Positions 44,673-57,207 of a DNA stretch of 64,000 nucleotides are shown piece by piece; position 1 is the first letter of the stretch; the number at the start of each line of letters is the position of its first letter. A program made the translations under genes and the position numbers. Under the pieces are notes generated by a model. It was not told the origin of the DNA and did not search any database. It saw nothing but the letters and a program-made list of their open reading frames with translations. The stretch is from NCBI GenBank assembly GCA_937899865.1, contig CALBRH010000063.1, forward strand, positions 1,957-65,956, written 5' to 3'. The stretch is from an uncultured euryarchaeote. Its GTDB lineage: Archaea > Thermoplasmatota > Poseidoniia > Poseidoniales > Poseidoniaceae.

Positions 44673-45689
44673 TCATACCTCCTTTGAATTAATTGAAACT
44701 TTGTTACCTATGTGGCGTGTATGTTCTGAATCGTGACAAAGAATAGAGTCACCAGTTTTCAAATCTGTCACTGATTTCACCTCGCCAACTCGAGACAGGA
44801 TGCGTACGGTCTCCGCCTGTTGAAGAAAGATAGAATTAGATATGTGATAGTCATTTTCCCAACAAATACGTAAGAATGGGCGTTTTTCGATTTTTAGTCG
44901 GCCGATTATTGCAGGTCTAGTTGAGCCGTTTTCAGTAACTAGCATAACCTCATCTCCTGAAATTAATTCTGACAGGTATTTTGTATTCCCATTAGCCATT
45001 AAGATATAGGAGTGCGGAGGTCCTGCATTTACTCTAAATGGTCTTGAAGGAACAAATTCAGACTCCAAAACTTCACCGTGAACCAAAGCCAATGATGAGG
45101 AACTGGAACCAATTAACATACCTTCACCATGAGAGATTAAGCATGTGAGATCGATGCAGTATCTTTCTCCTGTCCCTCCAGATTCTATTTTAGTTATCTT
45201 TGATGTGGTCAGTTGTAATTCTGAAAAGGAATCTTCTACAATCTCTATTACGTTATTTTGACTTTCAAGTCTTTGAGATTTAGCAATTTCACAAGCTTGA
45301 ATTAAACTGGTTTCATTTTCAATTACGATTGCTCCAACACCTTTTTCGAGTGCAAATGCAATTCCATTGACCTCTTTTTCATCAGTTACTATTACAGCAA
45401 TACTTGTTCCAGTACCTTCACATTCAGAAATTAGATTTTCGACAGGAATCATTTTCCAACTAGAGAATTCAAGGATTATCCAACTTAACAAACCAATTTT
45501 TCCTCTAACAATATCGTATGTATTGCTGTCGTTAACAGAGAAAAGTTGTCCGGTTATCGAACCATCTTCAATCAATTTGTCATCAACCAAGCAAAAATTT
45601 GTATTACTGTCATTAGATAATATTTTGTCAAATACAGCATTTTTCTTTGATGGTGCCGAATTTACTCGACAGTCACACCAAACCTGCAT
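44673..45689 (-). CDS. 3-dehydroquinate synthase II (archaeal AroB')
   Basis: Size (338 aa) and position immediately downstream of ADH synthase in a tight operon (1-9 nt gaps). The call rests mostly on context and overall resemblance. Confidence 0.65.
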   Translation of the reverse strand: MQVWCDCRVNSAPSKKNAVFDKILSNDSNTNFCLVDDKLIEDGSITGQLFSVNDSNTYDIVRGKIGLLSWIILEFSSWKMIPVENLISECEGTGTSIAVIVTDEKEVNGIAFALEKGVGAIVIENETSLIQACEIAKSQRLESQNNVIEIVEDSFSELQLTTSKITKIESGGTGERYCIDLTCLISHGEGMLIGSSSSSLALVHGEVLESEFVPSRPFRVNAGPPHSYILMANGNTKYLSELISGDEVMLVTENGSTRPAIIGRLKIEKRPFLRICWENDYHISNSIFLQQAETVRILSRVGEVKSVTDLKTGDSILCHDSEHTRHIGNKVSINSKEV

Positions 45690-45698
45690 CTAATCACC

Positions 45699-46496
45699 TT
45701 ACAAAGAGCACTTTTCAATTGCCTGCTCAACCGATGAGTTTTGGTGCACAATCATTACAATCGCTTTGGCAATTGCAGTTATATTTTCGTGGGCAAAAAT
45801 TTGTCTACCCATACAAACACCGGCGCCACCTGATTCAATCGATTCTTTTACCATGGTGAGGATTTCTTTGCTATTGCCAGTAGATGGGCCTCCAGCAACA
45901 AGTAGAGGAATCGGTGCAGCCTTACAAACTTGAGAAAAACTATCTTTGTCACCTGTCCAAACGGTTTTTGCTACATCACATCCAAGTTCAAAAGCAATTC
46001 TTGCCGCATGAGCGTATCCTTTGGTAGAATCTGATTTCATTAAATTTACATTTTCACCTCGAACATATACCATGCCCAATACTGGAACATCATTAAGATA
46101 GGCTTCAGTAGTAATATGGCCCATTCTTTCAAGCATTGCTGACTCCTTTTTGCTGCCTATATTAAGTTGACAAGAAACCCCAACTGCTCCTCTCATAATT
46201 GCTTCATCTACATCTCCAACTAAGACTTTGTTACTCTGATTTTTCCCACCGTGTCGAGTGGATGCCGATAGATGAGCGATCATGCTGGTTTTCGTTCCTT
46301 CACAAAGGTGGCTGAATTTATCTACTACGCCTTTGTGAGCAACTATTACATCAACTTCTCCAGCGATAAGTGAATTGATTGTTGACTCAATATCTTCAAG
46401 TCCTCGACTTGGAAAATCAGTGACTCCATGGTCAATTGGCACCCAAACACCCCTGCCGTTCGGTAAAATTTCCGACAGGATTTCTTGCTTCCCCAT
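45699..46496 (-). CDS. 2-amino-3,7-dideoxy-D-threo-hept-6-ulosonate (ADH) synthase (archaeal AroA', class I aldolase fold)
   Basis: VPIDHGVTDFP...GLEDI...VIVAHKG and the Schiff-base lysine context GCDVAKTVWTGD. 265 aa. Confidence 0.8.
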   Translation of the reverse strand: MGKQEILSEILPNGRGVWVPIDHGVTDFPSRGLEDIESTINSLIAGEVDVIVAHKGVVDKFSHLCEGTKTSMIAHLSASTRHGGKNQSNKVLVGDVDEAIMRGAVGVSCQLNIGSKKESAMLERMGHITTEAYLNDVPVLGMVYVRGENVNLMKSDSTKGYAHAARIAFELGCDVAKTVWTGDKDSFSQVCKAAPIPLLVAGGPSTGNSKEILTMVKESIESGGAGVCMGRQIFAHENITAIAKAIVMIVHQNSSVEQAIEKCSL

Positions 46497-46614: not shown

Positions 46615-48378
46615 ATGGGTGGTATGATGGAACCGGTGACTATGGCCACAATGGGAGCCCTTGGTGGGGGTTTCTTATTTGGCATGTGGTATACATTAGT
46701 ACGCAGTGATGCGAAATTAAATATGCGCCCTGGAATGTCTGCTGAAGGTCTTAGACAAGACACAGGTGCTCCAAGTTTTGGTAAGACAAAACAGGAAATA
46801 GACCGAAAATTAGCAATTGTTGAGGCTCGAAGAAGAAGGGCGGAATTAGTTGAATCAAAACTAGCTGCTCAAGAAGCAGAACTTAGAGCTGCTGAGAATG
46901 CTAGAAAGTTAGCAGAAGAATCGGAAAAAGCGAGACTACGACGACAACAAGAACGGCTAAGAGCTGAGGAAGAAGAACTTTTGAGGCGAGAAACCGAAGA
47001 ACAGCAAAGAAAAGAGCAGGAAGAATCTGAACGTCAAAGACTTGAAGAAGAGGCTCGTATGTCAAAATTACGTTTGGAGGAGGAAGAAAGACTTGCCAAA
47101 GAACAGGAAGAGTTGCGTCAAGCAGAAATGGCGGCAGCTGAAGAGCAGAGACTTGCTGAGTTGGAGGCGGCTAAATTACAAGAAGAAATGGAATCTCGAG
47201 CGGCTGCTGAGGCTGCAATGGCTGAACTACAAGCCCGACTAGAAAGAGAAGGTGCAATGACTGGCGATGTTCAAATATCCTTGATGTGGGAGAATTACAA
47301 TGATTTGGATTTGCATGTAGTTTGTCCATCTGGTGAAAGAATTCATGGTGGTAACAAAAAATCAGAGTGTAATGGCGAATTAGATGTAGATGCTAATGTT
47401 AGGCCTGAAACTAAGAAACCTGTTGAGAATGTAGTTTGGCCAGGGGTTACCGCACCACCTGGTAATTACCAAGTTTATGTCCATCATTACAAGAAACATA
47501 GGAAGCGTAGAACCAAAGATCCTACAGGATTCCAAATCATAGTCAATAATGTTGGCGATTATCGAGAATATCATGGTGATTTGACTCACGGAGATCCAAT
47601 AAGATTAGTCTGTCAGTTTGAAGTTCCAGAAAGAGATGAGCAATCTGAAAATGTTAAGCGAAGTTTGGAAGAACAAATGCGTCTAGAAGCAGAAGAGTCT
47701 GCAAAAATAGAACAAGAAAGAGAAGCCGAGGAAAATCAAAGGCAAGCTGAACTCGCTGCAGCAGAAGAACAAAGATTGGCAGAGTTGGAAGCCGCTCGAC
47801 AAGAAGAAGAAATTGCGGCTAAGCAAGCGGCAGAAACTGCGATGCAAGAATTACAAGAGCGATTGGACAGAGAAGGCGCAAGGTCAGGGGATGTCCAGAT
47901 TTCTCTGATGTGGGATAACTACAATGATTTGGATTTGCATGTAGTTTGTCCTTCTGGCGAAAGAATTCATGGTGGCAACAAACTTTCACAATGTGGTGGC
48001 GAATTAGATGTAGATGCTAATGTTCGCCCAGAGACCAAAAAACCAGTTGAAAATGTAGTATGGGATGATGACACTGCTCAGGCGGGAGAGTATCAAGTAT
48101 ATGTTCATCATTACAAGAAACATAAGAAGCGTAGAACCAAAGATCCGACAAAATTCAAGGTTATCGTCAACAATATTGGTGAACTGCTAGAATTTGATGG
48201 TAAATTATCTCATGGTGACCCAATCAAATTAGTTGCCCAATTCGAAGTTCCAACTGCTGAAGAAAGGCAAGCAAGAATTGCTGCCATTCGTGCTGAAATG
48301 GAATTATTATCTTCAAGTAAAAAAGATACAGAGACTGAAGAGATAGAAGTTGAAGTTAAACTTGAAGATGATGAATGA
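46615..48378 (+). CDS. N-terminally anchored protein with ER/K-rich helical spacers and two copies of an uncharacterised Cys-containing domain of about 120 aa (DLDLHV signature)
   Basis: TM helix MGALGGGFLFGMWYTLV, then long E/R/K/A/Q-rich segments, then two near-identical modules ending in GDVQISLMW.NYNDLDLHVVCPSGERIHGGNK.S.C.GELDVDANVRPETKKPVENVVW...YQVYVHHYKKH.KRRTKDPT... Confidence 0.7.
   Translation: MGGMMEPVTMATMGALGGGFLFGMWYTLVRSDAKLNMRPGMSAEGLRQDTGAPSFGKTKQEIDRKLAIVEARRRRAELVESKLAAQEAELRAAENARKLAEESEKARLRRQQERLRAEEEELLRRETEEQQRKEQEESERQRLEEEARMSKLRLEEEERLAKEQEELRQAEMAAAEEQRLAELEAAKLQEEMESRAAAEAAMAELQARLEREGAMTGDVQISLMWENYNDLDLHVVCPSGERIHGGNKKSECNGELDVDANVRPETKKPVENVVWPGVTAPPGNYQVYVHHYKKHRKRRTKDPTGFQIIVNNVGDYREYHGDLTHGDPIRLVCQFEVPERDEQSENVKRSLEEQMRLEAEESAKIEQEREAEENQRQAELAAAEEQRLAELEAARQEEEIAAKQAAETAMQELQERLDREGARSGDVQISLMWDNYNDLDLHVVCPSGERIHGGNKLSQCGGELDVDANVRPETKKPVENVVWDDDTAQAGEYQVYVHHYKKHKKRRTKDPTKFKVIVNNIGELLEFDGKLSHGDPIKLVAQFEVPTAEERQARIAAIRAEMELLSSSKKDTETEEIEVEVKLEDDE
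47131..47632 (+). repeat. Intragenic tandem duplication, copy 1 (helix end plus DLDLHV domain)
   Basis: Begins at AAAEEQRLAELEAA and ends at QFEVP. Long stretches match copy 2 at the nucleotide level, for example caatgatttggatttgcatgtagtttgtcc and ggcgaattagatgtagatgctaatgtt. Confidence 0.85.
47755..48255 (+). repeat. Intragenic tandem duplication, copy 2
   Basis: Offset of 624 nt (208 codons) from copy 1. By my hand alignment the domain core is about four-fifths identical at the protein level. Confidence 0.85.
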
Positions 48379-48386
48379 AAATAATT

Positions 48387-49499
48387 TCATGATAGAATAT
48401 CTGTCAAGCGAGATTCATTTTTTGCTTTCTTTATTGACCTAGCAATTCTTCTACCAGTTGACATCCTTTCTTCGTTGATATCGGAATAAGGTGAACCTCC
48501 AACAAATGGATTGGAGCCTGCAACAATTCTTGCACTTATTTCAAAGACTTTGAATTCTAATTGATCAGTAACAATTGTTTCCAAGCAGAAAGGACCTATC
48601 ATGCCACGACTCCCCTCTTCAAGAACGAAAGATTCGGCTACAGTTCCCTCTGCCATTTCAAATGCTTTAGGAAGTAACGATTCTCTAATCACTACTGGTT
48701 GATTGCCAGTTACAACAAAAGAAGGCTCTAAGCTCATTTCACGCAAGTCTCTCAAAGAACCTAATTTGTAGAACTCATCAACATTAGATTCATCTCTTCT
48801 ATCCATTGATAGTAACTCAAGTCTTCCAAGATTTTTTCCTGCATGTTTGCCTTTCCCTTGAACTTGATATCCATCCTCAGCAATTGGGTCAAAGAAGAAA
48901 TGCAAATAATAACGGCAGCCAAGGACATATTCTTGGATAGTGAATTCTTCCTCTATGTCGACATTTCTACGGAAGTCACGATAATCTCTTGCGATAAAGT
49001 AACCTCTACCACCTTTTGCTCCAGCGTACTTGACAATTACTGGGCCATCGATATTGTGTGGGTCATCCAATACTTTAGGCATGTCACAACCACCAGCTTC
49101 TAACCAATCTCTTTGTCTTTGTCTACTACTTTCCCAGTGAAGGATTCCTCTATTCCCAAAAGTGGGGACTTGGAGATTTTTGAAATTTGTAGAGCCAAGA
49201 TATTCTACAAGAGAACCGTGTGGGATTATTATCACGTTACGCTTCCTAAACCATTCTGCATAATCTAACATTTCTCGATAATCTTCTAACATTAACCATT
49301 CATCTGGATCAGCGCCAGGAAATGCTTGGTAGAACTTTCTACGGTTTTCACCAACAGCTATTCCTAGAGTTCGAAAACCTTCTTTTCTTGCCCCATGAAG
49401 GATTTGTAAAGACGAGTGAGATGCGACAACTCCTATTGTTAAGTTGTCAAGGTCGTAGTCGGAAAGCCAAGATTCCAGAGTATCCGTGTCTACGCCCAT
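48387..49499 (-). CDS. purP: 5-formaminoimidazole-4-carboxamide ribonucleotide (FAICAR) synthetase, archaeal PurP
   Basis: IGVVASHSSLQILHGARKEGF N-terminal block and an ATP-grasp-like core. 370 aa. Confidence 0.85.
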   Translation of the reverse strand: MGVDTDTLESWLSDYDLDNLTIGVVASHSSLQILHGARKEGFRTLGIAVGENRRKFYQAFPGADPDEWLMLEDYREMLDYAEWFRKRNVIIIPHGSLVEYLGSTNFKNLQVPTFGNRGILHWESSRQRQRDWLEAGGCDMPKVLDDPHNIDGPVIVKYAGAKGGRGYFIARDYRDFRRNVDIEEEFTIQEYVLGCRYYLHFFFDPIAEDGYQVQGKGKHAGKNLGRLELLSMDRRDESNVDEFYKLGSLRDLREMSLEPSFVVTGNQPVVIRESLLPKAFEMAEGTVAESFVLEEGSRGMIGPFCLETIVTDQLEFKVFEISARIVAGSNPFVGGSPYSDINEERMSTGRRIARSIKKAKNESRLTDILS

Positions 49500-49609: not shown

Positions 49610-50740
49610 GTGAAAGTTCAAGTCTCTATTAGTCATCCGTTAAACATGGAAGATGTTGAGAGGTCTAGTCGAATGACTTATGGAAATTATCTCAGGTTAG
49701 AAGAAATGCTCACATTACAAGAGGGGCCTGAAGGTTATTTGCCAGAACCATGCAATGATGAGAAACATTTCATTATTGTTCATCAGGCATTTGAATTATG
49801 GTTTAAATTAGTCCTTTCAGAGTTAAAAGAAGTTCATTCTCTAATGAATAGTCAAAATATTGACGAAAATTCAATGCCTAAAATAGTTCACCATCTTAAC
49901 AGAGTGTCTACAGTATTCGGTTTAATGTCACAACAGTGGAAGGTAATGGAAACCTTAACGCCTCAAGATTTTCTGTCATTTAGAGATCGATTAGGTACCT
50001 CTTCTGGTTTTGAGTCATGGCAATTAAGACAAATCGAGATTATTCTTGGTCTTGAGCAGCAACAGAGAGATGCAGGCATGGATCCCTTGAGTCATATGAA
50101 AAAGTTGGAAAAAGAAGGTAAAATATCTTCAAACGTGCTTACTGAATTTGAAGAAATGATTAATTCACCATCGCTTAATAAATTGCTCAATGATTGGCTT
50201 TCTCGCACACCAATAAATGGTTCTTTACCTAGTGATTCAAACGACGAAAAAATAGTTTCAGATTATATAGAAAGCCACCTTGATGCTATGAAAACTCATT
50301 CTGGAATGGTAATTTCTCACTTTAAATCGATTGGACATGGTGATGAATCAACACTTGGCGATAGATTAAACAAATCAATATTGGGTGCAAGAGAATTCCT
50401 TCTTCCAAGTGAAAAACCAAATAGAGCAAGAGCAGGACTTTTATTCATTGAATCATATCGAGAATTACCTCTATTGTCTTGGCCAAGAGCACTCATTGAT
50501 TCATTTGTTGAACTTGAAGAATCTATATTGTTATTCAGAAATTCACACGCAAGAATGGTTGAGAGAATGATTGGTAGAAGGATGGGTACAGGTGGATCAA
50601 GTGGAGTTGATTATCTTGATGCAACCTTGAAATATCGTATATTCGTTGATTTATGGACCATTAGGACCATTTTGGTCAAAAGAGATTTGTTACCTGAAGT
50701 TACAAATTCAGCTTATTACGGATTTAACTCTCAAGTATGA
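49610..50740 (+). CDS. kynA: Tryptophan 2,3-dioxygenase
   Basis: YGNYLRLEEMLTLQ, HQAFELWFKL, FRDRLGTSSGFES, H.RMVERMIG.R.GTGGSSG blocks. GTG start in the track; the true start may be the ATG about 14 codons in. Confidence 0.85.
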   Translation: MKVQVSISHPLNMEDVERSSRMTYGNYLRLEEMLTLQEGPEGYLPEPCNDEKHFIIVHQAFELWFKLVLSELKEVHSLMNSQNIDENSMPKIVHHLNRVSTVFGLMSQQWKVMETLTPQDFLSFRDRLGTSSGFESWQLRQIEIILGLEQQQRDAGMDPLSHMKKLEKEGKISSNVLTEFEEMINSPSLNKLLNDWLSRTPINGSLPSDSNDEKIVSDYIESHLDAMKTHSGMVISHFKSIGHGDESTLGDRLNKSILGAREFLLPSEKPNRARAGLLFIESYRELPLLSWPRALIDSFVELEESILLFRNSHARMVERMIGRRMGTGGSSGVDYLDATLKYRIFVDLWTIRTILVKRDLLPEVTNSAYYGFNSQV

Positions 50741-54246: not shown

Positions 54247-57207
54247 TCATTCGTATAGGTCTTCGAATTCATTGGCCATTGATTCGGCCAATCTTCTATT
54301 TCTTGCACTGATAACTTTTCTAAGTCTTTTCAAGCGTTTTGAAATGAATGCTAACATAATAAATCCTAGACAAAGTGTAACCAAAGTTACTATTCCTGCC
54401 GTCTTGAATTCCTGTTTCTCTAAGCTATCCGAAAAATTACCTAGCCATTCACTGTTTAATGGTGGTTCAGGCTCAGGTTCAGGTTCTGGAATAATATGTT
54501 GATTGTATGACCACCAATCATCTTCTATGTACACTCTTTCGACATTTGGTGAAGGATAAATTGCTACAGTACGCTCATTACCATATTGATCGGTGGGGGT
54601 TAAGATATAGTAGAAAGTCTTCATTGGTCTAATACTATCATCATCAATACCATTTTCAGTATATTGATAATTCTCTCCTGCTGTATAAGCAATATTTTCT
54701 AACACTGGTTCAAGTAAATGTAAATTGATGCCATTAGGGTTTTGCTCAATACGATATAAGTTCCAAGTTTCATTTTCTTCACCTTCTGGCCAAGTCCATG
54801 AAATTGTTACTTCATAGCACATATTCCAATCTTTAAGAATATCAAAACATGCAGTATCATTGGTGAATCTCCAACTATTTTGCATATTTATTACAGAAGT
54901 GGATGGCGGTGTTGAATCACCACAGATAAATGTCGCGTTTCCATCGATCATTGAAACGTTTGCTAGATGATTAAATGTTTCACCAGTTCTATCAACTGGG
55001 ATTATAGCATATGATGAACAAAATCCGTCAGGAATTGCGATTGTGTCCTGCCAATTAGTCTGATCAATTGGGATGAATTCTCTAAATGATTCTTCAACTA
55101 GACTTTCCCAAACCGCTTCATTATAATCTAGTTGAGGTGATGGGAAAATTGTACCACCAAAATCAGGAACAAGTTTCTGATGTATGTTCCAACCAAGAAT
55201 ATAATCGCTTTCTGTATCACCATAAGGTTGCCAATTCAGATTAAAGTTCCCGTTAGCGATTAAATCAACTGAGAAATTTAAAGCCTCGATATTAGGTTCG
55301 CCAAGATCTCCAATAAATAGAATCGTGGTGGCTTCATAGACTTTGATTGACATTTTAGTTTGGTTGATATATCCAACATTATCAGAATTGAAGAATTCCC
55401 ACTCAGTGTCACTAAAGGAGTCTAATTTTCTTATTTCTATCGATGATAATGGTACTTGTGAAGGCATTAAATCGAAGAGACTTAATTCAATTTCAATCCA
55501 GTTCTGGCCATTGAAATCAGATTGATTAGTTTGGGAATTGATTAAGTCAAATTGCAATAAAAACAACGGACTTTTGCCACCTCCGATGTTATATCCTTCT
55601 CTCTCCATAGGTAATGTAGAATCATGTAAAATCTGTACGGTATCAGTTGCAGAAATCGCACTCGCTTCATACAATGGAAGATTTGAAATTTGTACTTCAG
55701 TATAAACTAATATGTTGAAATAAATAGTTTCACTATTGCCTAAGGAATCACTGGTAATTAATTTGAAATCATGACTTCCTAGGCCATAATCTGATGTGTT
55801 AATCTGTGTGGTTTGACCATAATCTATGTTTATTATTCCCGAATACCACCAAGAAAAATTTACAGGAGGTGATGAATATGGATTTATGTTTGCTGATATT
55901 GTAATTATTTCATTATCCGTATACCATTCCTTTTCATTATCAATTTCAATGCTACTCATTAGTTGAGGTATAATGACGCTTGTGGTTTCTTCTAATACAT
56001 TATCTAGTGGATTTGTATCTTGATTATTCATTACATTGTCTTGAAGTATAGCTTTTATCAAGATAGATTCGCCTTCGAAAGTCATGTCAAAAACACAATT
56101 TTTATTTTGTTCAGGAATTAGAATAGTTATTATACAAATTTGTGAATTGGTTTTCTCACCATTAGAAAGTTCCAATTCTAGTTGGACATTCTCTGCCGTC
56201 ATGTTGGCATTGTTACTTACTTGAACATTAATCATATTAACTCCATAAAAGTAACTTGTTGCAGATGGATTATGGCTTGGAGAAATACTATCTATTGAAA
56301 TATCTAACTCAGTATTGATTTTTACAATTACAGAATTTAGATTATTTGATTCAAATAAATCACTGAATGGGTTTCCAGTTGAATTAAAAATCCCATAAAT
56401 AAGTGTAAATGTGCCATCCTCCGAATGGTTGAATGTTGGTAGATTCATAGTGAAAGACTTATAGAACGAGAGTTTTGGATAATTTTCTTCAAAAATATAA
56501 TTTTCATTAACCATCTCAGTTTGATTTTCATCCCAAAGTTGCCATCCTAATGTAGTATTAACATTGCAAGAGGCGCAAATGTTGGCATATCCCGAAAATG
56601 ATATTTCGTATTCTGTATTATTGGAGAGTATTTTCTCTCCATCATAAATTGCTAAACCGTTCAATTGATCAATAATATCTTCATTATCTTCAATCATAAT
56701 ATCAGTATATTGCAACGAAGCATTAAGAATGAAATTAAATATATCATTGCTTGGATTAAAATCTAATTCTTCAAATTGGTATACTACAGTAATTGTTTCA
56801 TTAAGTCCATTTGGATAGAACGCGTCACCAGAAATAAAACTCGAGGATTCTCCTGGAAGCAAACTATTGATAGAGATTTCACCCTGTGCTATTTTGTTAT
56901 TAATACAAACATTTGAGACCTTTTCTCCAAGACAAACATACCAATCTATGATTCTGTTTGGAGATGTAAAAATGTCTTGATTAGTTACAGTTACTTCAAA
57001 ATTTGTTGCTGAATATGCCGGGATGTAATCATCATTACTTGGACTGGAACTGTCGATAGACAAATCTCCGCTAACAGAAGCTGTAACATTAGGGGAATAA
57101 TTGGTGATAATTAGTGTGCTAAATAATATCAAAAAAGCAACTAACATTGATGAAAATCTACCGACATCATTGTTAGCGCGGGCTACACTCATACAGTTGC
57201 CTGACAT
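54247..57207 (-). CDS. Large (986 aa) Asn/Ser/Thr-rich surface protein with an N-terminal signal and a C-terminal TM anchor (putative S-layer/adhesin-type glycoprotein)
   Basis: N-terminal hydrophobic MLVAFLILFSTLIIT. Many N-x-S/T sequons. A PEPEPEPEPP linker precedes the TM helix TAGIVTLVTLCLGFIMLAFI and a basic tail. No enzymatic motif. Confidence 0.6.
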   Translation of the reverse strand: MSGNCMSVARANNDVGRFSSMLVAFLILFSTLIITNYSPNVTASVSGDLSIDSSSPSNDDYIPAYSATNFEVTVTNQDIFTSPNRIIDWYVCLGEKVSNVCINNKIAQGEISINSLLPGESSSFISGDAFYPNGLNETITVVYQFEELDFNPSNDIFNFILNASLQYTDIMIEDNEDIIDQLNGLAIYDGEKILSNNTEYEISFSGYANICASCNVNTTLGWQLWDENQTEMVNENYIFEENYPKLSFYKSFTMNLPTFNHSEDGTFTLIYGIFNSTGNPFSDLFESNNLNSVIVKINTELDISIDSISPSHNPSATSYFYGVNMINVQVSNNANMTAENVQLELELSNGEKTNSQICIITILIPEQNKNCVFDMTFEGESILIKAILQDNVMNNQDTNPLDNVLEETTSVIIPQLMSSIEIDNEKEWYTDNEIITISANINPYSSPPVNFSWWYSGIINIDYGQTTQINTSDYGLGSHDFKLITSDSLGNSETIYFNILVYTEVQISNLPLYEASAISATDTVQILHDSTLPMEREGYNIGGGKSPLFLLQFDLINSQTNQSDFNGQNWIEIELSLFDLMPSQVPLSSIEIRKLDSFSDTEWEFFNSDNVGYINQTKMSIKVYEATTILFIGDLGEPNIEALNFSVDLIANGNFNLNWQPYGDTESDYILGWNIHQKLVPDFGGTIFPSPQLDYNEAVWESLVEESFREFIPIDQTNWQDTIAIPDGFCSSYAIIPVDRTGETFNHLANVSMIDGNATFICGDSTPPSTSVINMQNSWRFTNDTACFDILKDWNMCYEVTISWTWPEGEENETWNLYRIEQNPNGINLHLLEPVLENIAYTAGENYQYTENGIDDDSIRPMKTFYYILTPTDQYGNERTVAIYPSPNVERVYIEDDWWSYNQHIIPEPEPEPEPPLNSEWLGNFSDSLEKQEFKTAGIVTLVTLCLGFIMLAFISKRLKRLRKVISARNRRLAESMANEFEDLYE

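Follow-up and report, generated by a model that had tools for sequence, protein, structure and literature searches.

A Poseidoniales core gene encoding two YfaP_C/DUF2135-type domains on charged helices of conserved length behind a presumed membrane anchor

The window analysed here, a stretch of 64,000 nucleotides (nt) from an uncultured euryarchaeote of the Poseidoniaceae (positions 1,957 to 65,956 of contig CALBRH010000063.1, assembly GCA_937899865.1), contains in its list of open reading frames (ORFs) a complete coding sequence (46615..48378, + strand) for a protein of 587 amino acids (aa) plus a stop codon. Orthologs of 575-590 aa, sharing 78-99% identity, are found in more than 100 independent clusters. 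The translated product begins with a Gly-rich, uncharged hydrophobic segment of 23 residues (aa 7-29; 46633..46701), which on the basis of hydropathy and conservation is presumed to be a single membrane anchor, and a juxtamembrane segment delimited by its conservation among the orthologs (aa 30-59; 46702..46791). These are followed by a helix of 152 aa (stalk 1; aa 60-211; 46792..47247), a 127-aa beta-sandwich of the YfaP_C/DUF2135 type (domain copy 1; aa 212-338; 47248..47628), a helix of 81 aa (stalk 2; aa 339-419; 47629..47871), a second beta-sandwich sharing 80% identity with the first (domain copy 2; aa 420-546; 47872..48252), and a C-terminal region made up of a short helix (aa 548-573) and an acidic tail of variable length (48253..48375), all on the + strand. 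The stalks were delimited by structure prediction and by their fixed length, in stalk 1 also by composition, and domain copy 1 by structure prediction and hhalign. The AlphaFold2 (AF2) model of the whole protein, derived from an alignment of 36 orthologs, comprises helices at aa 59-213, 340-419 and 548-573 and two beta-sandwiches. It agrees with the order of anchor, helix, globular domain, helix and globular domain proposed in an earlier note on this DNA, made from the sequence alone, and the ORF, the composition of the charged regions and the domain consensus given in that note likewise hold. The C-terminal tail is modelled with a predicted local distance difference test (pLDDT) value below 50, and the C-terminal region, as delimited in the ortholog alignment, varies in length and shares 35-49% identity among orthologs. 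This architecture is new within the YfaP_C/DUF2135 family, which is catalogued but uncharacterised.

Two stretches of the protein match the Pfam family PF09906 (DUF2135, renamed YfaP_C in a newer release; Bitscore: 29.8 against a cut-off of 22; e-value: 6.5e-7), as the earlier note had suggested. The single copies score 20.1 and 17.7 bits, both under the cut-off, and the model matches just 22 residues per copy (PGNYQVYVHHYKKH...; profile positions 1-22 of 48), the only stretch matched being the region of a polybasic, His-containing loop. Because the Pfam model covers so little of each copy and each copy is sub-threshold, homology to Escherichia coli YfaP was tested directly by hhalign, with a 35-sequence alignment of the ~133-aa domain unit as the query. 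Residues 142-256 of YfaP align with the domain over 109 columns (probability: 98.6%; e-value: 6.9e-16), and the motifs sLsW..n.DLDLHV..P.GE, G.LD.D and G.Y.VyV.yY are common to both. AF2 models the isolated domain as a nine-strand beta-sandwich (pLDDT: 91.7), and the alignments indicate a true domain extent of ~125 aa, not 48. Database labels on the orthologs already read 'YfaP family' or 'DUF2135', and for three of them (P0378-P0380) Pfam PF27332 is listed in the precomputed annotation. An exhaustive HMMER search found the domain in 4,919 clusters at 50% identity, spread over bacteria, archaea and phages, with between one and 12 copies per protein. Relatives of 1,566-2,505 aa carry 9-12 tandem copies (P0143, P0144, P0253, P0196 and P0203), and others pair the domain with zinc ribbons, GYF_2, a C-type lectin domain, or OmpA plus PD40; the domain is a widely shuffled module. 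A literature search for DUF2135 found no paper, and searches for YfaP and yfaS/yfaQ gave no functional information, while a 2025 survey of E. coli hypothetical proteins lists YfaP without a regulator or Gene Ontology (GO) function. The statement of the earlier note that no function has been described is in line with this, and the family to which the domain belongs is not a well-characterised one. The PADLOC anti-phage defence models matched 0 families at e-values up to 0.1.

E. coli YfaP, with which the beta-sandwich is homologous over its whole length, is a periplasmic protein of 258 aa with a signal peptide, encoded in the cluster yfaA-yfaT-yfaS(alpha-2-macroglobulin)-yfaQ-yfaP. The archaeal protein lacks a signal peptide and has its anchor in the reverse orientation; it has in addition a polybasic loop, a second domain copy and a pair of long charged helices, and its gene lies among housekeeping genes. 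The periplasmic location and yfaS cluster, which are traits of E. coli YfaP rather than of the whole Pfam family, are not found for the window gene. Homologs are furthermore encoded by phages, with 118 phage records containing the domain (PHROG 1735 and 23228). Members of PHROG 1735, such as Klebsiella phage KpS11 gp017 and S0A5K4 of Cellulophaga phage phi4:1, contain the same domain (e-value: 7e-48; Foldseek template modelling (TM) score: 0.76), with an RvkaaGG-type helix ahead of it. They differ from the archaeal protein in being soluble, about 665-713 aa in length, with one internal domain copy and neither an anchor nor charged stalks. Genes for homologs of 665-676 aa sit among replication genes, for example in Klebsiella phage KpS11 (L085, 3735-5765) and Pseudomonas phage Arace01 (L084, 4750-6747). 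As these phage homologs lack a signal peptide, their place among replication genes indicates that the domain can operate inside cells. The label 'DNA-directed RNA polymerase' on some of them is apparently a misannotation that was carried over, as a Pfam search of the phage homologs found no domain.

More distant relatives were recovered when the family profile was compared with the PDB. The matches are C-terminal domains of subtilases, namely SubHal (5fax; e-value: 5.2e-4), KP-43 (1wmd; 1e-3), 9ues (0.018) and Tk-SP (3afg; 0.026), and the matched stretch of 5fax is a Pfam PPC domain (31.8 bits; cut-off: 25.9). Among the relatives of the window protein, P0126 exceeds the cut-offs of both P_proprotein (34.8 bits) and PPC (27.3 bits), and P0124 that of P_proprotein (21.4 bits). 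The window protein itself falls below the Pfam cut-offs of both (P_proprotein e-value: 0.1; 13.2 bits against 21), and a single-domain phmmer search against PDB sequences gave no match, the subtilase domains being reached by the family profile alone. The similarity extends over ~80 residues (sLvW, nDLDL.i..P.G, nvENv, G.Y.v.V.aY) of the PPC (PF04151) and P-domains (PF01483), at e-values of 5e-4 to 0.026. It is marginal but consistent, and indicates that the domain is distantly related to the PPC/P-domain jelly rolls of subtilases. Like the domains of 1wmd, 5fax, 3afg and the halolysin C-terminal extension, the window domain is an all-beta domain of ~120 aa. It differs from them in having no protease attached and in its predicted intracellular location, and the YfaP_C-like family alone has the GGELDVDxN motif and the RLxReGA helix ahead of the domain. 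C-terminal jelly-roll extensions have been reported to confer stability on proteases and to bind macromolecular substrates, and a loop disulfide is present in the extension of halolysin (PMC3158780).

The 50 best Foldseek matches in the PDB include no PPC or P-domain entry. The two top matches belong instead to the TerD family (2qng; TM: 0.56; root mean square deviation (rmsd): 5.5 Å; e-value: 0.013; and 2qz7; TM: 0.47; rmsd: 11.9 Å), a membership confirmed with K. pneumoniae TerD, and an early W...DLD motif is found in the fold of both TerD and the window domain. These matches raised the question of whether the domain is a TerD-type Ca2+-binding stress-response domain. Their e-values exceed 0.01, their rmsd values span 5.5-12 Å, the TerD motif GDN(R/L)TGEGDGDDE is not found in the domain, there is no Pfam TerD match, and the sequence profiles point to PPC/P-domains. 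With a profile-profile probability by hhalign of 3.1%, this assignment was rejected as highly improbable.

Among 221 domain copies aligned, twelve positions are invariant or nearly so (W225, D230, D232, L233, P238, G254, L256, D257, E271, N272, G283 and Y285). The acidic and amide residues among them (D230, D232, D257, E271 and N272) probably form, by analogy, a cation site of the Ca2+ type. H234 is retained in 88% of the copies, and H290, H291 and H295 in 60-72%. A Cys pair is found in both window copies (C237/C252 in copy 1; C445/C460 in copy 2), and copy 1 alone has a third Cys (C333). Both positions of the pair are Cys in 95 of the 221 copies, only the first in 3, only the second in 54 and neither in 69. 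The near-constant occurrence of C237 together with C252 would fit a disulfide or a metal site to which both residues belong, and a Cys pair in the halolysin extension forms a disulfide. The polybasic/His loops of copy 1 (HHYKKHRKRRTKDP; aa 290-303; 47482..47523, + strand) and copy 2 (HHYKKHKKRRTKDP; aa 498-511; 48106..48147, + strand) correspond to a loop of the form HHYKKHKKRR(S/T)KDP that is retained in 139/139 domain copies from Poseidoniales and contains on average 9.6 K/R/H per 14 residues. Bacterial relatives have HHYANHGGRDPT-like loops instead, the polybasic loop being specific to Poseidoniales. It probably contacts a polyanionic partner, such as an acidic lipid, nucleic acid or acidic protein.

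The two domains form part of a duplicated module, which includes the ~40 helix residues preceding each of them (copy A: 47119..47631; copy B: 47743..48255; both on the + strand) and is recognisable as direct repeats at an exact spacing of 624 nt. The stretches 47203-47502 and 47827-48126 share 78% nucleotide identity, and 47119-47189 and 47743-47813 share 76%, with an overall identity of 75% across the 513 nt of the module and a longest exact run of 32 nt, at 47296. At the protein level, aa 169-338 and 377-546, offset by 208 aa, are 77% identical, and the domain cores ~80%. This similarity is far above chance. The earlier note had reported the 624-nt spacing and the ~80% identity of the cores, both of which stand, and many identical nucleotide runs, which call for correction: at 75-78% nucleotide identity the copies are not near-identical, and such runs are concentrated in a single tract (47269-47390 versus 47893-48014; 85-95% identity) that includes the 32-nt run and lies within otherwise diverged copies. 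This tract accounts for the impression of many identical runs, and could stem from gene conversion on a small scale or from tight constraint on the codons of the YNDLDLHVVCP motif.

The same note had taken the duplication to be evolutionarily recent, which is contradicted by the divergence of the copies. Nei-Gojobori estimates of the synonymous divergence (dS) between the modules are 1.15 when the domain is considered alone and 1.45 over the full module, with saturation in the helix part, and third codon positions are 56% identical. The nonsynonymous divergence (dN) is 0.13-0.15, and the resulting dN/dS of ~0.1 indicates that both copies are under purifying selection. Two copies are encoded in 119/119 of the closest protein clusters (78-99% identity), which derive from many independent assemblies and include contigs of 1.9-2.0 Mb. 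Across 80 genomes, one per GTDB species, 57 contain two modules, 23 one and none three. The query for this species scan was a single domain and reached close relatives only, so that the list speaks for Poseidoniales rather than for the whole family. In the tree of domain copies from these genomes, copy 1 of the window groups with copy 1 of 21 other two-copy species, and copy 2 likewise, the two clades being reciprocally monophyletic across the 22 species. The duplication is therefore older than the radiation of these species and an assembly artefact is excluded. As such, the sequence comparisons indicate that the helix-plus-domain duplication is old, not recent.

The contrary reading, in which the second module arose very recently or was created from a single-copy gene by misassembly, could draw on the near-identical tract, on contigs that stop within the gene and on single-copy genes with 99% identity to copy 1 of two-copy relatives. 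It is already refuted by the dS values, the separate clades and the copy counts, and its probability is negligible. Copy-1 and copy-2 sister clades of their own are also seen in other lineages, namely clades of 27, five and three species and L077, and the two copies share 91-92% identity in P0122 and P0124. This pattern would result from at least four independent duplications of the module or from occasional gene conversion that homogenises the copies. The domain of the single-copy L027 is 99% identical to copy 1 of the two-copy L026 and L035, and the single-copy L029 and L030 fall in or beside the same copy-1 clade, with L026, L033 and L035 as their two-copy counterparts. These similarities point either to a second module that was lost recently or to a repeat that collapsed in assembly. 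Contigs end within the gene in L002 (at position 1), L015, L042 and L045, and the internal repeat seems to break metagenome assemblies, which explains the many fragments of 140-250 aa among the homolog matches. P0132 (408 aa), compared with P0122 (603 aa), continues past domain 1 into an apparently out-of-frame second module, and looks like a frameshifted two-copy gene, resulting from sequencing error or representing a pseudogene.

The stalks are dominated by charged residues. Stalk 1 (aa 60-210) consists of 28% E, 21% K+R, 19% A and 9% Q, with a net charge of -12, and stalk 2 (aa 339-418) of 30% E and 14% K+R. AF2 predicts stalk 1 as a single unbroken helix (pLDDT: 70-92). Between 47 and 60% of the residues are charged across aa 61-180, and aa 91-180 (53-60% charged) contain many i/i+4 pairs of opposite charge and give the highest pair scores. 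Over most of both stalks, the best occupancy of heptad a/d positions by LIVMFY is just 0.12-0.38. These properties recall the ER/K single alpha-helix (SAH) spacers of myosin VI/X and caldesmon, which are likewise long, unbroken predicted E/R/K helices with i/i+4 charges and no hydrophobic seam, and the window stalks also appear as spacers of defined length. They differ from the known examples in the excess of Glu, the Ala and Gln content and the conserved amphipathic ends. Thus, the middle of stalk 1 has the character of an ER/K single alpha-helix, and the fit is poorer for stalk 2 and for the ends of the stalks. The ER/K designation of the earlier note is accordingly apt for the middle of stalk 1 and not for the stalks overall, which are E-rich and lead into a conserved helix bearing Ala, Leu and Met. 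This helix comprises the last ~40 residues ahead of each domain (AAAEEQRLAELEAA...AAMxELQxRLxREGA) and is almost invariant. Its RLxReGA part is conserved in bacterial and phage relatives too, and as such forms part of the domain unit.

Stalks 1 and 2 measure 152 and 81 aa, respectively, in 36/36 orthologs, with zero indels, although their mean identities are 76% and 74% and their minimum identities 58-64%. The C-terminal helix and tail, unlike the stalks, vary in length in the same orthologs. In 21 of the 22 species of the clade to which the window belongs, 173 aa separate the end of the anchor from domain 1; in most members of a second, 27-species clade this distance is 165 aa, and in most single-copy genes 205-213 aa. 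The interdomain linker measures 72-74 aa in both large clades. At 0.15 nm per residue, the stalks would reach ~23 nm (stalk 1) and ~12 nm (stalk 2), if straight. The maintenance of length while residues change is consistent with a spacer of defined reach, and supports a spacer or ruler role, an idea already raised in the earlier note.

The hydrophobic segment has a length of 23 residues in the majority of the 80 species genomes. Its best 19-mer has a Kyte-Doolittle value of 1.21 in the window protein and a mean of 2.1 in the orthologs, the window's segment being the least hydrophobic among the orthologs examined. G18, G19, F20, G23 and Y26 are invariant in the 36 orthologs, and G14, G18 and G19-x3-G23 form a small-xxx-small motif. 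Such motifs often mediate helix-helix packing, and the motif in the anchor may do likewise. The adjoining juxtamembrane segment, fixed at 30 aa in the 36 orthologs, is the best-conserved part outside the domains (mean pairwise identity: 93%), and its motif G-M-x-x-E-G-L ... F-x-x-A-K/R is found in distant Poseidoniales homologs as well. The short N-terminal tail ahead of the hydrophobic segment is acidic, and the 15 flanking residues contain on average 0.07 K+R on the N-terminal side and 3.05 on the C-terminal side, the latter being richer in 125/126 orthologs. According to the established positive-inside rule, this excess on the C-terminal side suggests an N-out/C-in orientation with the stalk and both domains in the cytoplasm. 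The window protein has no signal peptide, and its charge bias is the reverse of one.

We suggest that this gene, part of the vertically inherited core of Poseidoniales, encodes a membrane-anchored, length-calibrated tether presenting binding modules, with the domains in the cytoplasm, and put the probability of this explanation as a whole at roughly one half. One short Gly-rich hydrophobic segment at the N-terminus would hold the protein at the membrane, with the short N-terminus outside and the stalk and domains in the cytoplasm, as the charge distribution suggests. A rigid charged helix of 152 aa (~23 nm) would project from the anchor and end in the YfaP_C/DUF2135 beta-sandwich of ~125 aa, and a second helix of fixed length (81 aa; ~12 nm) would bear the second domain copy. 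In this way, the tether may keep one binding module, or two, at defined distances from the membrane.

Several observations weigh against this explanation. AF2 models aa 1-29 not as a helix but as a low-confidence beta hairpin around the GGG triplet (pLDDT below 52), the anchor of the window protein is weakly hydrophobic, and the conserved GxxxG could drive dimerisation, monomeric SAH and coiled-coil dimer being inseparable by sequence or AF2. The housekeeping genomic context is uninformative on function, and the literature searches yielded nothing bearing on it. Furthermore, most annotated relatives are extracytoplasmic, with signal peptides (as in E. coli YfaP), C-type lectin, OmpA or PD40 domains, and those of the PPC/P-domain type lie outside the cell on secreted proteases. 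The C237/C252 pair resembles the disulfide of the halolysin extension, and a disulfide would fit an external location better. These last points lend themselves to the opposite orientation, in which the protein would be a TolA-like envelope-spanning tether or an adhesin, its stalk bridging the space from the membrane to the surface layer and its heads binding the S-layer, extracellular polymers or protein substrates. The Asp-rich cluster and the co-occurring Cys pair would then correspond to an extracellular Ca2+ site and disulfide. Reported archaeal membrane-to-S-layer distances are similar to ~23 nm. The only match in an NCBIfam search was a sub-threshold one of the stalk to TolA (TIGR02794; e-value: 4.8e-4; 19.5 bits against a cut-off of 59.45). 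TolA resembles the window protein in its single N-terminal anchor, long charged helical domain II and globular C-terminal domain, and differs in its head domain; the window gene, in an archaeal host, has no Tol-Pal partners nearby. An external location is at odds with the absence of a positive N-region and with a charge distribution around the segment that is the reverse of that in TolA and Sec signal peptides. The presence of the domain in phage proteins lacking a signal peptide also argues against it, as does, more weakly, the presence of zero N-X-S/T sequons in 587 aa. We consider this orientation possible, if somewhat unlikely.

A further alternative concerns the state of the stalks, which may be parallel coiled-coil dimers nucleated by the GxxxG anchor, such that the protein would form a bivalent or tetravalent membrane-bound structural fibre. 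The conserved small-xxx-small motif of the anchor is consistent with this, as are the pre-domain helix (aa 174-211), which bears Leu, Met and Ala at a 3-4 spacing near its end, and the stalk lengths, which differ between clades by ~7-8 residues (159, 165/166 and 173). The low a/d occupancy over most of both stalks and the density of charged residues and i/i+4 pairs of opposite charge in aa 61-180 argue against a coiled coil, and this alternative is more doubtful than the external orientation.

The gene is flanked by archaeal housekeeping genes belonging to the shikimate, purine and haem pathways. These encode an ADH synthase-type aldolase, type II 3-dehydroquinate synthase, shikimate-kinase-like GHMP kinase, chorismate synthase, PurP (DUF1246/DUF1297), tryptophan 2,3-dioxygenase, CtaA and UbiA. 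The archaeal-type shikimate entry enzymes, the ADH synthase-like aldolase and type II 3-dehydroquinate synthase, are encoded at 44673-46496, and the tryptophan 2,3-dioxygenase gene (49610-50740, + strand) adjoins that of the archaeal PurP (48387-49499, - strand), in an order conserved across Poseidoniaceae. The order aldolase, window gene, PurP and tryptophan dioxygenase is also found in GCA_016779765.1 and in a Candidatus Poseidonia genome, and a search of the neighborhood in the window and these two genomes found no functional links. An ORF of 986 aa (54247-57207, - strand) holds a conserved position at the edge of the syntenic block, with counterparts of 982-985 aa in L001 and L002. The closest homologs of the encoded protein are named Candidatus Poseidoniaceae or Poseidoniales. 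The 80 genomes containing the gene are Poseidoniales or unclassified euryarchaeal metagenome-assembled genomes (MAGs), except for two contigs that were probably binned wrongly into MAGs with a bacterial label, and the gene occupies the same locus wherever checked among these genomes. The conserved order and the distribution in Poseidoniales indicate a vertically inherited core gene, not an island.

By itself, this gene overturns nothing known. Its significance lies in the combination of an uncharacterised domain family, charged helices of conserved length and a repeatedly duplicated module. The Poseidoniales, or Marine Group II archaea, rank with the most abundant archaea of the plankton and, to our knowledge, have no cultured representative, so that conserved genes of unknown function are among the few handles on their cell biology. 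In a more specific form of the proposed explanation, the protein would be a cytoplasmic ruler on the inner face of the membrane, with cation-dependent, polyanion-binding heads held exactly ~23 nm and ~35-40 nm below it. This is a speculative and quite unlikely proposal. If true, the ruler might hold the nucleoid, ribosomes or some other large assembly of the cytoplasm in place with respect to the envelope, a superfamily that is otherwise familiar from secreted proteins would here serve a new purpose, and the repeated duplication of helix plus head in several lineages would tune reach and valency. The protein is a rare prokaryotic case of charged helices conserved in length, not sequence, and as such a natural test case for single alpha-helices as rulers. 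It furthermore provides an entry point to the ligands of YfaP_C domains, including those of E. coli YfaP and the phage proteins.

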